NCBI GenBank assembly: GCA_951406725.2 | Contig: OX597825.1 | Span: 18,600,001-18,664,000 of the forward strand | DNA: 64,000 bases | Reading direction: 5' to 3' | DNA from: Octopus vulgaris | Taxonomy: Eukaryota | Shown: one piece after another, positions 5,236 through 59,730 of the stretch | How positions within the stretch are numbered: position 1 is the stretch's first letter | How the letters are laid out: the number at the start of each line of letters is the position of its first letter | The notes under the pieces: model-generated | Database searches by the model: none | Told to the model about the DNA's origin: nothing | The model's input: only the letters and a program-made list of their open reading frames with translations | Translations under genes and position numbers: made by a program

Positions 5236-5271
5236 GTTTCCGACGAAGAACTCCACTCGAAACGTTAAAAC
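5236..5271 (+). ncRNA. Degenerate minimal type I hammerhead-like motif in a ~205-bp (TA)n-flanked element (5166-5370)
   Basis: GTTT-CCGACGA-AGAACTCCACTC-GAAACGTTA-AAAC: stem I GTTT/AAAC, core with U4C, palindrome AACGTT; stem II imperfect. Confidence 0.5.
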
Positions 5272-6124
5272 CTCCATCTTTCATTCTTTCCTGAGCGTCC
5301 AATAATACTATATTTGTTCCACGTCTTCGCGTTGTTGTGTTTTGTGTTGTGCTTTCTTGTTTGGATTAACTATATATATATACGTACACACATTCATACA
5401 TACATACACATTTGTGCGTGTGTGTGTGTGTGTGTGTGTGCTTGTCTGCTCGTGCACGTTTGTAAGGTTGTCAGGGTATGTATTTATGATTTATACCTTT
5501 ATAAATATCGCTTGGTTTCTTTCCACGTGGTATTTGCTATTTTGTTGTTAAACAAGATCTAAATACCTAAAACTAATGACGTTGCAAGCGACACTCGTTG
5601 CGCAGCTAACTTTGAGCGTGAACCTACTTCGGGTTGCAGTATACAACGACGAGAACACGAAGACCTGAATCAAAGGTAAAATCAGCACAACAGCAACAAC
5701 AACGTTATTACTTCTCTATAAAAATACCAACGTGATCGTGCTTTGAGTGAAAAGGCTTCACGTATTTTTATTTCAAATAATTTTTCACCATCGATAATCT
5801 AATAAAACATAATTTCAACAAAAAAAAATTATTTATTAAATTATTTCTAATATCGTGATGTCAGTTCCTCTTTGATTAAATTAGAATGAAATTTGTTCCT
5901 CAGAAAAAGCAATCACTTTAGCTTTTTCTAAGGTTATAGAAACATCTTCGCTAAGCAAAAATGACGTGGCTACCAATAACACGAAATATGGAAACGCCTT
6001 GCTTTAACATTTCGTTAGTGCAGTGAAAGCAAATGGATAATGAAATCGCTTAAATATATTTTCCACCACAATGTATTCATTTGAATATATCTGGAATCAT
6101 TTCAATAATTTTTTTTTTTTATGT

Positions 6125-6480
6125 TTTAGTTTGTTTCAATCGTCATTCAAATGCGGCTCTGCGAAGACAACACTGTGAAAGATTTAGTCGAATAAATTAA
6201 CGGTAAAACTTATTTTTAATATTTGCTACTTGTTCTGACGATCTCTTTTGCCGAATCGCTATTTTACGGAGACAGAAACAAACTAGCAGATGTTCTCAAG
6301 CCCTGCTAATGGACAAAGACAAACACACGCCCACACACATACACACACATACACACACATACACACACACACAAACATACGCTGGCATATACATAAAAAA
6401 CGGGATTCCATGACTTTTCTGCCTACCAAATTCATTCATAAAACACTGGTCTGACCGGTACTATTGTACAAGACATTTGC
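6125..6480 (-). mobile_element. SINE family A, old diverged copy
   Basis: TCTCTTTTGCCGAATCGCT, (CA)n centre and CTACCAAATTCATTCATA match family A order. Confidence 0.7.
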
Positions 6481-6487
6481 GCAATAT

Positions 6488-6699
6488 GCGAGCTGGCAGA
6501 ATCGTTAGCACGCCGGGCGAAATGCTTTTCGGTCTTTCGTCCGCGGTTACGTTGTGAGTTCAAATTCCACTGAGGTCGACCTTGCCTTTCATCCTTTCGG
6601 GGTGGCTCAAATAAGTACCAGTTGCGCACTGGGGTTGATGTAATCGACTTAATCCCTTTCTCTGTCCTCTATGTTAAGCCCCTTGTGGGCAATAAAGAA
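6488..6699 (+). mobile_element. SINE family B monomer (AATAAAGAA-type tail)
   Basis: Head GCGAGCTGGCAGAATCGTTAGCACG, B-box-like GAGTTCAAAT, central GGTCGACCTTGCCTTTCATCCTTTCGGGG, tail GCCCCTTGTGGGCAATAAAGAA. Confidence 0.9.
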
Positions 6700-6884
6700 T
6701 TGAATATGCCCTGGGGTTACAATAAACCTGAAATCACATAGTTGCAAAGTAAGCTTTCCATAGCAACGCCTGCCATAGTGTGAGCACATAATTGCCAGTG
6801 TATGCGAGATAGAATAAAGAAACTTGAAGATAATTATTATAGTCTTTCTGATGTATGTATTCATATGAATATGAAGAAGTAGAA

Positions 6885-7040
6885 ATAATCCTTTCTGATA
6901 AAGGCACAAGGCTTGAAATTTGGTGGGAGGGGACAAGTAGATTACATCGGCTCCAGCGTTTCACTGGTGCTTAATTTTTCGACCCCGAAAAGATGAAAGG
7001 CAAAGTCAACCTCAGCGGGATTTGAAGTCAGAACGTAATG
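6885..7040 (-). mobile_element. SINE family B fragment (CCTTGTGCC-type tail)
   Basis: Reverse complement of the central domain and tail of 21561-21776. Confidence 0.8.
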
Positions 7041-7271
7041 AAAAACGAAGAATTGCAAATAATGTATATGTTAGCCTAACAACGGAAGTGAGTATCTAGA
7101 CGTTGAATGTCACTTACAGAGTCAATAAGGTATCATCTATAGTTGATTGATAAAGATGATGGCCGTAGACTCTTGTAAATACCGAGGGATGAGTAAGTAG
7201 TCTCGCGCAATACGTGAGTGGTGTTCTGCAGTTTCTCGCTGAACAACATGCACAAATATTTTCTTTCTTTT

Positions 7272-7682
7272 TTCTTTATTGCCCACAAGAGGCAAACATA
7301 GAGGAGACAAACAAGGACAAACAAAGGGATTAAGTCGATTACATCGACCCCAGTGCGTAACTGGTATTTAATCCATCGACCCCCAAAGGATGAAAGGCAA
7401 AGTCGAACTCGGCGGAATTTGAACTCAGAACGTAACGGCAGACGAGATACCTATTTCTTTACTATCCACAAGGGGCTAAAAACAGAGAGGACAAACAAGG
7501 ACATACATAGGCATTAAGTCGATTACATCGACCCCAGTGCGTAACTGGTTCTTATTAAATCGACCCCGAAAGGATAAAAGGCAAAGTCGACCTCGGTGGA
7601 ATTTGAACTCAGAACGTAGCGGCAGACGAAATACCGCTAAGCATTTCGCCCGCTCACCGCCTTTCTGCCAGCTCACCGCCTT
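7272..7682 (-). mobile_element. SINE family B dimer (one head plus two tandem body units)
   Basis: Two consecutive body copies joined at GACGAGATAC/CTATTTCTTT (~7450); head at 7630-7682. Confidence 0.9.
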
Positions 7683-56705: not shown

Positions 56706-57190
56706 TACACATATATGCATGTATATGTACATGTAGAGGTAGGTACGTACATATATGTTTATATATATGCATATGTTTTATTTTATTTGTTAACATATAT
56801 ATATATACATACATATATATGCGTGTGAGTGTGTACATATATATATATATGTATACATATGCATACAAATAATATATACGTACATAATATATATATACAT
56901 ATATATATATATATATATATATATATATATATAGAGAGAGAGAGACATGTATATATATATATATATATACATGCATACCTACATATATATACGGATATAT
57001 ACACATATATGTATGAGTGTTTGTGTGTGTGTGTCTTTATCCACGTGTGTGTGTGTATGTGTGTGCGTGTGTGTGTAAACATCATCTGAAAGTGTGAGGG
57101 GGAGTGAGAGAGAGAGAGAGAGTGAGAGAGAGAGAGAGAGAGAGAGAGAGAGAGAGAGAGAGAGAGAGAGAGAGAGAGAGAAAGAGAGAG
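56706..57190. repeat. (TA)/(TG)/(GA) microsatellite field
   Basis: Direct reading. Confidence 0.93.
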
Positions 57191-57585
57191 ACGGTGTAAA
57201 ATTTTTTTCTTTGGTACTCTTAGAAAGAAAAGGTGATGAAAAAGAAAGAGTATGAGATGAATAGAGAATGGAAATCGAATGTTTCTGAAAGAAATATAAT
57301 TAACAATTAAATAGAAGAATAAGTGAAGGTAATCAAATAAATTCATATTTACCGATTCCATTGCGTATTGTTTACGTAATCAGGTCTCTAATAATGAGGA
57401 ACATACCGCAATCTGACATAATGTCACACACACGTATATACGCATGCACGCGCCCGCACGCACCCTATATATATGTATGTAACACACACACACACAATAT
57501 ATATATATATATATATATACGTGCGTGCCTATATATATACATATATGTGTTTGTATATATATATATATACATAATATATATATGT

Positions 57586-57832
57586 CGTTGTTTGTTCCTT
57601 CTCGAGCGACGCCTGGCTCACAGGGGTGGTTTCCCGGTTTCCTTGACGTATAGGTTCCCCACCTGGACGGGACGCCTGTCCTTCGCAGGATCAGTCATTT
57701 TAGCCATCTGAGTGGACTGGACCAACGTGAAATGAAGTGTTTTGATCAAGAACACAACGCATCGCCCGATCCAGGAATCGAAACCAGAACCTTACGAACA
57801 TGAGTTCAACGCGCTAACCATTAAGCCACGCA
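57586..57832 (-). mobile_element. SINE family C-related copy with a different 3' region
   Basis: 57708-57832 matches the family C head and core; 57586-57700 does not match 61228-61430. Confidence 0.75.
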
Positions 57833-58382
57833 TATATATATGTGTGTGTGTGTGTGTGTGTGTGTGTGTGTGTGTGTGTGTGTGTATGTGTGTGTGTATG
57901 CATATATGCATGCATGTACGTATGTAGAAATCCTCACATACATACATGGGAAATTGACACTATCATCTAAAACTACGTTAATATCTGAATGCATACATAC
58001 ACCTAAATCTACGTATAGATTGCAATAGATTGTGTTTACAAATTTAATTTTCAGGAAAAAAGCAGCAAAAGGTCTGAGAATTTGCTGAAGCAGGAAATAT
58101 TCCAGTGTAGTGGGATATCAGATCTATCGAATAATTTATAGTTATTTGGGAAACAAGATATTATCTCCAATGGTGATAAATATAGTTAAATGCCGTGAAA
58201 AAGAAAGTCACTTTTGAATGAAATGCACTCGTAATGAAGTATTAGAATGAGGAAAGGAGTTTGATAGTAGTATCAAAAGATGTATTCGTTAATTTCTTGT
58301 GTTTATTGTTACCGTTCTTTTATCCTACTGCATTCTTGATGAAGTAGATTCATGAATGAGATGTATCATACGCACATAGACA

Positions 58383-58604
58383 CTATATATATATGTGTGT
58401 ATATATATATATATATATATATATATATATATATATATATATATATATATATATATATATGTATATATATACACATATATATATATATATATATATATAT
58501 ATATATTATATATATATATACATGTATATATATTTATATATATATATAATATATATATATATACATATATATTATATATATATACATATACACATATATA
58601 TATA
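58383..58604. repeat. (TA)n tract
   Basis: Direct reading. Confidence 0.95.
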
Positions 58605-58934
58605 AGTGTGGGGGTGGTGTATGAAAAGTCTCATTCTTGAATCTATTTCATTCCACAGCTTCATCCCACAGGGGAAGGTAAAAAATGTGCAGAACTCCTC
58701 ATCTCTGAAATATAGAACAATATATATTGCAGGCAAATTTATAATGTGACGTAGTTTTCCTTTTTTCAAAATTGATGCAAGATTTATGACCCCTTCTTTT
58801 ATTTTGTTCTTCCACGCAGATCGCTCATTTGAATCTAAATTTTGCTGAACTTATATATATATATGTATATATATATGTATATATATATATATATATATAT
58901 ATATATATATACACACATATATACATGTCATTTT

Positions 58935-59058
58935 CTATTCTAGGCACAAGACTCGTAAAATTGGGGAAACGGGCCAGTCGGTTAGCTCAACTCCAGTACC
59001 CAACTGGTACTTAATTTATCGACCGCGAAATGATGAAAGGCGAAGTCGACCTCGGTGG
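58935..59058 (-). mobile_element. SINE family B fragment
   Basis: AGGCACAAG...ACTGGTACTTAATTTATCGACC...GATGAAAGGCGAAGTCGACCTCGG. Confidence 0.8.
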
Positions 59059-59659
59059 ATATATATATATATATATATATATATATATATATATATATTG
59101 TGTGTGTGTGTGTGTGTGTGTGTGTGTGTGTGTGTGTGTGTGTATTGTACATTATATACAAATATATGAAATACTGGATATAAAATATTAAGGGACTAGT
59201 ATACTTTCTTGCATTAAAGCGGTTTTCAAGGTCCCAGGGTGTGACAGGAATGTTTCAACAGTATATATATATATATATATATATAAAATAAAATGGATTT
59301 AATCCTAAATCTGATTTTTTCCCTGTAATTTTGGATTTATTCCTAATATTTATTATATATATATATATATATATATATATATATATATATATATATATAT
59401 ATATATATATATATACTGTTAAAATTTTAACGGTAGAAACTTTTGAAAAAATTTCATACCGGTGGCTAGCATGCGTAATAAAATCTATTGACAACATAAC
59501 TTCATATACAATAGTGTACAAACCACTAAGTATTGATACACGAAAAAGGTGACCTGTAGCTTCGCTTGCGCAGCGGATTTGAAAATGTAATGGATAAGTA
59601 TGCAGCACGTACATGTTGTAGGTAAGGTATTGGCTGTATAATTATATATAAATTTTAGC

Positions 59660-59730
59660 AACCTCACTGATGAATACAGATAACACATTAATCTATTTGC
59701 TCACTGATACAGAAACTCGAGTTTGAGGTT
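59660..59730 (+). ncRNA. Type I hammerhead-like motif with 7-bp stem I and palindromic stem III, in a (TA)n-flanked element (59415-59873)
   Basis: AACCTCA-CTGATGA-ATACAG...CTGATACA-GAAA-CTCGAG-TT-TGAGGTT; perfect stem I, GUU site, imperfect base of stem II. Confidence 0.72.

Follow-up and report, generated by a model that had tools for sequence, protein, structure and literature searches.

A 64-kb window of the Octopus vulgaris genome (contig OX597825.1, in an assembly of 2.80 Gb and 227 contigs) contains seven sites with hammerhead ribozyme letters, one of which, at 56481 on the plus strand, belongs to a repeat family whose hammerhead blocks stand in a non-circularly permuted order (type SGC). 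"The window" is used below for this whole stretch, positions are counted from its first letter, and families are named after the position of their window copy. The reading favoured here, to which we give a probability of about 0.6, is that the 56481 motif is a type-SGC hammerhead in a Penelope-dependent element without an open reading frame (ORF), that it is inactive in a lone unit and active upon refolding or exchange of block C, and that the self-cleaving RNA is copied into (TA)n. The permuted motif is the new element in the window; its type I Penelope families belong to a known class. A first-pass annotation of the window had listed hammerhead-like letters at 5236(+), 9440(-), 12859(-), 26128(+), 54934(-), 56481(+) and 59660(+), with flanks dissimilar to one another. 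Both observations hold: the letters are present at every site, and the family consensus sequences have only TA-rich flanks in common.

In the genome search, which returned 40 scored copies per host element and whose candidate totals are lower bounds, the 56481 family had 2810 candidates. CUGA upstream of GAAA was found in no copy of the family, and CUGAAGA lies about 30 nt downstream of GAAA. In diverged relatives found in the flanks, the strand 5' of CUGAAGA is complementary to one that lies upstream of GAAA. This upstream stem I strand follows a GUC or GUA triplet, which in turn follows the pairing partner of the strand 3' of GAAA. A search for block G followed by block C gave 2600 exact matches in the genome, and its reversed control none. 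The family carries the hammerhead blocks in the non-circular order S-G-C, in at least 2600 copies. A type II reading, in which stem I would lie between the palindrome and CUGAAGA, was dropped, since stem I is then unpaired and the relatives place block S upstream.

Alignments of 25-30 fetched copies were made for each family. A descriptor for the SGC order, which allows two G-U pairs in stem II (an earlier version with one G-U missed the family), matched 23 of 25 close copies of the 56481 element, whereas the type I descriptor matched 0 of 25; the first-pass description of this site as a mutated type I hammerhead is overturned by this result. The background of the SGC descriptor was one match in a random 1 Mb and none in 8 shuffles. 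The linker between stems I and II is 3 nt long in 59 of 82 SGC-descriptor matches (range 1-6). One further match, at L081:2959 (+), is unrelated to the family, is a single copy in the data and is probably due to chance. A scan of JGI metagenomes with the G-C pattern gave 7 matches, 0 with block S, which were taken as chance. Contigs from four sequencing runs all contain parts of the 56481-family element.

For covariation analysis 40 copies were aligned, 28 found by the G-C pattern and 12 by DNA similarity. They come from 94 pattern matches (66 distinct), with near-duplicates and copies truncated or deleted before block S omitted. The U16.1-A15.1 and U1.1-A2.1 pairs are kept in 40/40 copies, and position 17 is C or A in 40/40. 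Among 74 distinct copies U16.1 is present in 73 and a non-G H17 in all 74. Because block S was absent from the search pattern, the conservation of these cleavage-site letters was not selected for. In 28 of the 40 rows the search pattern itself dictated blocks G and C; the 12 rows found by similarity contain these blocks too, with 1-2 substitutions allowed.

The SGC structure together with an extension of stem III pairs in 88.8% of 918 cells of this alignment, against 44-56% in slid controls. Changes on both sides occur in 9 of 23 pairs (four in stem I, three in stem III and two in the stem III extension), and the covariation score was reached by 0 of 500 shuffles. A blind scan of the 74 distinct copies over 153 columns gave 146 candidate helices, three of them containing a pair with at least 3 double-sided changes. 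Stem I ranked first, with three such pairs, a hairpin upstream of and outside the ribozyme second, and stem III third. In a tree built from the flanks the double-sided changes are spread over several branches: stem I pairs 2, 4 and 6 set apart the oldest group, pair 5 has changed within the lineage to which the window copy belongs, and stem III pairs 4 and 5 change among the middle groups. Stem II, for which a G10.1-C11.1 pair is expected, has 4 bp with two G-U pairs and is 98% paired. The 56481 pseudoknot is very probably under selection.

Two further structural features were seen in the alignment. The covarying upstream hairpin lies just 5' of the ribozyme. The stem III extension contains a purine-rich internal loop, with AGUA opposite GAA (alignment columns 15-31 and 62-77), which we take to resemble a bulged-G motif.

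Insertions made from cut templates should start directly 3' of the cut. Junctions were counted on the minus strand only, as plus-strand rows repeat for each TA register. Genome-wide, the 9 nt that follow the predicted cut hold 136 junctions with (TA)n (from 1288 loci), or about 15 per nt. The 31 nt that precede it hold 63 (2 per nt, and some of these coincide with the cut), and a stretch of 31 nt further 3' holds 143 (4.6 per nt). The density of 5' ends is about 7 times higher just after the predicted cut than before it, with most junctions 6-9 nt past the cut rather than at it. In 84 fetched copies from the first part of contig C1 (41 picked for linker variety, 43 in list order), 13 5' ends lie within 9 nt after the cut; upstream, the first 50 nt have 9 ends, the following 156 nt have 24, and 38 lie farther out. 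By eye, 4 of those 9 upstream ends fit the after-cut group and 2 resemble internal deletions. The step in junction density suggests cleavage in vivo.

The insertion pattern is that of Penelope-like retroelements. The 3' end is fixed among family copies and the 5' end varies; some copies carry inverted 5' pieces or form partial tandems. The ORF-less units are about 500-525 nt long in the 12859 family, about 487 in 54934, about 483 in 59660 and 836-875 in 56481 (one subfamily is spaced 589). Two or more full or nearly full tandem units were found at 5/25 loci of the 56481 family and at one locus of the 59660 family; the 12859 and 54934 families have only partial tandems, and none was seen among the fetched loci of the 5236, 9440 and 26128 families. 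The preference for microsatellites proposed in the first-pass annotation is borne out for (TA)n 3' of the element in six families, where it reaches 57-88% against a baseline of 7% at random positions: 5236 25/30, 9440 19/30, 12859 22/25, 54934 26/30, 59660 17/30 and 56481 22/25 (2 without anchor). It fails for the 26128 family (4/25), whose (AAT)n is internal. Unrelated control repeats adjoined (TA)n in 98 of 160 matches for one and 8 of 170 for another; because of the former, the (TA)n bias is not unique to hammerhead elements.

A young autonomous Penelope-like family is present in the same genome (20083 candidates), and many of its copies have an open frame of 784 aa. This ORF matches RVT_1 and, at borderline level, GIY-YIG; the element has a U3-A8 hammerhead variant at its 3' end and ends on (TA)n. 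Its tail shares no 3' sequence with any of the seven families. The family, represented by L226:2061-5230 (C1:26208500-26216000), has a long 3' untranslated region (UTR) with internal (CAT)n/(CTT)n. All seven window sites are likely the ends of Penelope-type retroelements, copied by Penelope-like reverse transcriptases.

Under the favoured reading, the 56481 motif would fold as a double pseudoknot and cut its own RNA after the GUC or GUA triplet, so that transcripts of tandem units would be cut by the ribozyme. Reverse transcription would be primed at a nicked (TA)n target and would have a fixed start about 270 nt downstream of the ribozyme. On a cut template it would stop just 3' of the cut and yield short copies, and on an uncut or circularised template it would continue and yield copies longer than a unit. 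The fold might form within one unit or by a swap of block C between two units, with the helix that extends stem III and a 3' hairpin keeping the lone unit inactive. Regulated or paired cleavage is favoured because this extra helix and hairpin would silence a lone unit. The more far-reaching claim, that an active SGC hammerhead arose in an animal Penelope-dependent retroelement, was kept through the radiation of subfamilies, cuts the transposition template in vivo leaving a footprint and may swap block C between tandem units, has in our judgement an even chance of being right.

A number of observations weigh against ribozyme activity of the 56481 motif. The three junction counts use different anchors, and TA microhomology favours some positions. 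No pile-up of 5' ends was found in the type I families, in samples of 16-39 unselected pieces each (3 for the autonomous family). This absence fits with their reported low activity, and because these small samples gave no peak, the junction test is without a positive control. No autonomous element with the 3' end of the 56481 family was found. RNAalifold did not recover the pseudoknot and favours an invariant 5-bp helix that would bury G8 and A9, with a duplex energy of -4.6 kcal/mol versus -2.6 to -4.6 for the active stem II. When 7 copies were folded singly, all came out as inactive nested structures, the program being unable to draw pseudoknots. The fourth helix of type SGC has no covarying counterpart among the 146 candidates, and the stem III extension looks, on geometric reasoning, hard to fit together with stem I in one molecule. 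No pair of stem II has changed on both sides, in part because most of the stem was fixed by the pattern in 28 of the 40 rows. The number of pairs with double-sided change was matched by 179 of 500 shuffles, and the shuffles ignore relatedness. The copies are related and the double-sided changes are nearly all transitions, some at CpG sites, so that the counts overstate the number of independent events.

Much of the folding evidence could also mean that the pseudoknot is real and does not cleave, serving instead for recognition or docking of the helper reverse transcriptase, or being a once-active ribozyme locked in the competing register, with the 5'-end pile-up caused by stalling of the enzyme. 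We consider this main rival unlikely, though it accounts for the competing invariant helix, the weak active stem II, the missing fourth helix and the inactive minimum-energy folds, and only 1 of 9 predicted Xenopus retrozyme dimers is reported to have cleaved in vitro (bioRxiv 2026.07.22.740005). Against it, the helices that covary best are the hammerhead stems and no covarying helix conflicts with them, while all core letters occupy hammerhead positions, including the single non-G nucleotide between stems III and I. Stalling is further disfavoured by the position of the peak, which lies after the point where the enzyme would already have copied the partner strands of all three stems.

The relatedness of the copies raises the possibility that the structure is an accident of shared ancestry, in which CpG-type transitions mimic compensation and the core letters are left from a duplicated and decayed type I hammerhead. 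The predominance of transitions, the shuffle tests that ignore relatedness and an upstream segment, CGCAGGAAGG, which resembles block C and could be an old duplicate, are in line with such an origin. It is nevertheless improbable, since double-sided changes are found at four positions of stem I and three of stem III, on different branches and in several cases away from CpG; slid controls are only about 50% paired and 143 other candidate helices lack such a signal; and the upstream segment pairs within the separate covarying hairpin. That 56481 is simply a mutated type I motif like the other six, and all seven are non-autonomous mini-elements targeting microsatellites, is very improbable given the descriptor counts above, the continuation of the 9440 family into a GIY-YIG ORF and the 26128 family not ending on (TA)n, even though the mini-element description is broadly true of the 5236, 12859, 54934 and 59660 families.

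Type-SGC hammerheads, the family HRIMA-1 and variants, were described from metatranscriptomes beside hairpin ribozymes (Eckert et al. 2023, PMC10085705). That report is the first demonstration of non-circular RNA permutation; the RNAs were virus-like and environmental, their host was unknown, and the origin of the topology was left open. In its available text no motif comes from the genome of a known organism, with the exception of one GCS candidate, and SGC-3 needs for its activity a fourth helix, which connects stems I and II at their free ends. The 56481 family resembles these RNAs in the S-G-C order, the full core, the double pseudoknot, the linker of about 3 nt and the covariation of stems I and III (PMC10085705). 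Unlike them, it has thousands of copies in an animal genome, within a Penelope-dependent element. Its A9 is followed by an additional A of the Penelope type, its stem II is weak and includes two G-U pairs, its stem III is extended, and it has no covarying fourth helix. It is set beside HRIMA-1 by topology, not by sequence, and because the fourth helix was looked for and has no counterpart, it is filed under the SGC topology and not as a member of the HRIMA-1 family. In our literature search no SGC hammerhead in an animal genome was found, in a coverage that is thin for subscription papers and supplements, such as the Penelope variants of Lunse et al. 2017.

The six type I sites resemble the minimal hammerheads of Penelope pseudo-LTRs (long terminal repeats) in their type I order, an extra nucleotide after A9, a tiny and mostly palindromic stem III, and a spread over many families with solo copies by the thousand (Cervera and de la Pena 2014, PMC4209133). 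The U3-A8 variant of the autonomous family is found there as well. The long stem II inserts (12859, 54934, 59660), a mismatch at the base of stem II and the U4C majority at 5236 differ from the motifs of PMC4209133, as does the topology of 56481; the searches in that study targeted type I. Likewise, the type I descriptor as used in a recent retrozyme preprint (Li et al. 2026, bioRxiv 10.64898/2026.07.22.740005) would miss the SGC family. Non-LTR retrozymes, described as non-autonomous Penelope derivatives, are like the octopus elements in that units of 480-875 nt lack an ORF, contain a single ribozyme each, occur in head-to-tail copies and have autonomous Penelope-like elements alongside (Cervera and de la Pena 2020, PMC7229834; 10.64898/2026.07.22.740005). 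The octopus elements differ from them in being mostly monomers or partial tandems and in having minimal or permuted hammerheads in place of canonical ones. Neptune/Naiad-type Penelope-like elements (Craig et al. 2021, PMC8557442) are similar in having 3' ends on (TA)n, 5' truncation, inverted 5' copies, partial tandems and an optional tail. A 2026 repeat annotation of an octopus genome lists active Penelope-like families, and the word "ribozyme" is absent from its available text (PMC13282606).

Coordinates of the window copies are given in Table 1.

Table 1. Hammerhead-bearing elements and their motifs in the window.
Feature	Position	Strand	Family
ORF-less element of ~205 nt between two (TA)n runs	5165..5371	+	5236 family
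Type I minimal hammerhead, U4C core, palindromic ACGU stem III; stem II damaged in window copy	5236-5271	+	
Truncated 3' end of Penelope-like element with C-terminal GIY-YIG domain; short inverted tail at 5' junction	9318..9723	-	
Intact type I hammerhead, non-palindromic stem III, CUC triplet	9440-9484	-	
Copy of ORF-less unit of ~500-525 nt	12697..12980	-	12859 family
Type I hammerhead, long stem II insert; G12 and 15.2 mutated in window copy	12859-12932	-	
Head-less copy of SINE-like element; expanded (AAT)n 25485-26077	25485..26226	+	26128 family
Type I motif; cleavage triplet deleted in window copy	26128-26170	+	
Copy of ORF-less unit of ~487 nt	54696..55021	-	54934 family
Type I hammerhead, 10-nt palindromic stem III, GUC; stem I damaged in window copy	54934-55021	-	
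5'-truncated copy of ORF-less SGC unit of ~840 nt (~86% identical to young subfamily); (TA)n on both sides	56119..56796	+	
Block S: stem III 3' strand, GUC (C17 = 56520), stem I 1.x strand; predicted cut 56520/56521	56516..56525	+	
Block G: stem II 11.x strand (one substitution in window copy), GAAA 56536-56539, stem III 15.x strand	56531..56542	+	
Block C: stem I 2.x strand, CUGAAGA 56568-56574, extra A, stem II 10.x strand	56563..56579	+	
Copy of ORF-less unit of ~483 nt; 5' inversion 59416-59555	59416..59874	+	59660 family
Type I hammerhead, 7-bp stem I; one-base stem II deletion in window copy	59660-59730	+	

None of the host elements is single-copy. Candidate totals for the type I families, again as lower bounds, are 3254 (5236), 2156 (9440), 2105 (12859), 241 (26128), 1938 (54934) and 795 (59660). 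The canonical-core type I descriptor was passed by 18/30 fetched copies of 9440, 14/30 of 54934, 10/30 of 59660, 7/25 of 12859, 4/25 of 26128 and 0/30 of 5236. Family copies restore the canonical core in 12859, 26128, 54934 and 59660 and confirm it in 9440. The first-pass annotation had called the cores of 9440, 54934 and 59660 intact and the other four mutated. Only the 9440 copy carries an intact type I motif within the window; 54934 and 59660 have intact cores and broken stems I and II, respectively, compared with their families. The label "mutated" fits 12859 and 26128, is wrong for 56481, with its SGC order, and does not hold for the core of 5236, where U4C is the majority spelling among close copies and not decay of the window copy: 25/30 copies of this family pass once U4C is allowed. 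A tiny palindromic stem III, also described in the first-pass annotation, occurs in five of the type I families and is absent from the 9440 family.

U4C is reported to lower activity, yet is tolerated in a viroid (PMC3088659). A canonical-core subfamily makes up 8 of 16 unselected copies of the 5236 family, and both the U4C and the canonical subfamilies have spread. This family also has a fixed 5' end, unlike the others, with 16/30 unselected pieces beginning within 2 nt of one position.

The 9440 family shows a continuous alignment from the end of a GIY-YIG ORF through the 3' UTR to the hammerhead at 3 independent loci, and the 9440 element is therefore a truncated coding element. For the other type I families no linkage to reverse transcriptase or GIY-YIG ORFs was found in the approximately 1.9 Mb examined. 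Linkage to such ORFs was thus seen in one family, and the description of the hosts as non-autonomous ORF-less elements applies to 12859, 54934, 56481 and 59660 and not to 9440.

The 26128 family has a tRNA-like head, an internal (AAT)n and a hammerhead-bearing tail. A/B-box-like motifs are found in the head at 14/25 loci; the head was not called a tRNA by ARAGORN (0/15 loci), and Rfam gave no tRNA match. The family has about 8 loci per Mb and was inserted with 5' inversions (e.g. L164, L151 and L148, and the random loci L274, L284, L306 and L311). It is apparently a tRNA-headed element moved by a Penelope-like enzyme; a literature search found no description of such a tRNA-headed, Penelope-mobilised hammerhead element. 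The SINE-like hammerhead repeats of Schistosoma also have tRNA-like promoter boxes followed by a hammerhead (PMC6765202). The octopus family differs from them in its minimal Penelope-type motif, its internal (AAT)n and its dispersal with 5' inversions, as opposed to tandem arrays. None of the six type I families stands out from the known class; they are new only for this genome.

The window alone gives a weak type I signal. A strict type I descriptor found no motif with a stem I of at least 4 bp and one (9440) with a stem I of at least 3 bp, and because 3 of 40 local dinucleotide shuffles also yield one motif, the case is carried by the family-level evidence. In a 1-Mb genome sample (100 evenly spaced 10-kb pieces) the descriptor does separate from shuffled sequence: 20 canonical-core motifs were counted, of which 15 have a palindromic stem III, and 8 shuffles gave 0-1 each; with U4C and U3-A8 cores allowed the numbers are 31 and 0-3. 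Intact type I motifs occur once per 30-50 kb, and the first-pass figure of about one per 10 kb, which had counted decayed motifs, does not stand. If the sample is representative, the genome contains roughly 56,000 canonical-core type I motifs. Most motifs of the sample fall outside the seven window families, and the suggestion that this genome carries many Penelope-associated hammerhead families ending on (TA)n is borne out. More than 12 further type I families were seen in the sample and flanks, many with long AU-rich stem II inserts, with a palindromic stem III of 2-10 nt and, in several, U3-A8 cores.

The window has about 34% G+C and is rich in microsatellites throughout. An Rfam search of it gave no hammerhead among the best 150 of 305 matches, and the matches listed are microsatellite-driven miRNA noise. 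As noted in the first-pass annotation, no Penelope-like reverse transcriptase or GIY-YIG ORF lies within the 64 kb. Decayed ORF fragments of a non-LTR retrotransposon (zf-RVT match) broken by (TAT)n are present at 22035-23966 (-) and are not Penelope-like. A 184-bp tandem repeat at 7271-7635 and 33636-34189 belongs to a dispersed family of very high copy number, with about 170 matches per Mb. DNA-transposon-like features include 164-bp near-perfect inverted repeats (8167-8330 and 8561-8724) and other palindromic elements at 13472-13701, 37083-37324 and 55050-55980, the last with a decayed transposase-like stretch seen by eye.

If the more far-reaching claim on the 56481 family is true, mobile elements of a cellular genome would for the first time be seen to encode a non-circularly permuted ribozyme. 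Searches limited to type I would then have overlooked this class in Penelope-like elements thought to be ribozyme-free, and surveys of animal genomes limited to types I-III would undercount ribozymes. A high-copy family with datable subfamilies would supply natural variants for structural and kinetic work, and the type I motifs around the 56481 family offer a starting point from which its rearrangement could be followed. For the role of hammerheads in Penelope-like transposition, the step in 5'-end density may serve as a simple genomic read-out of cleavage, usable for any family.

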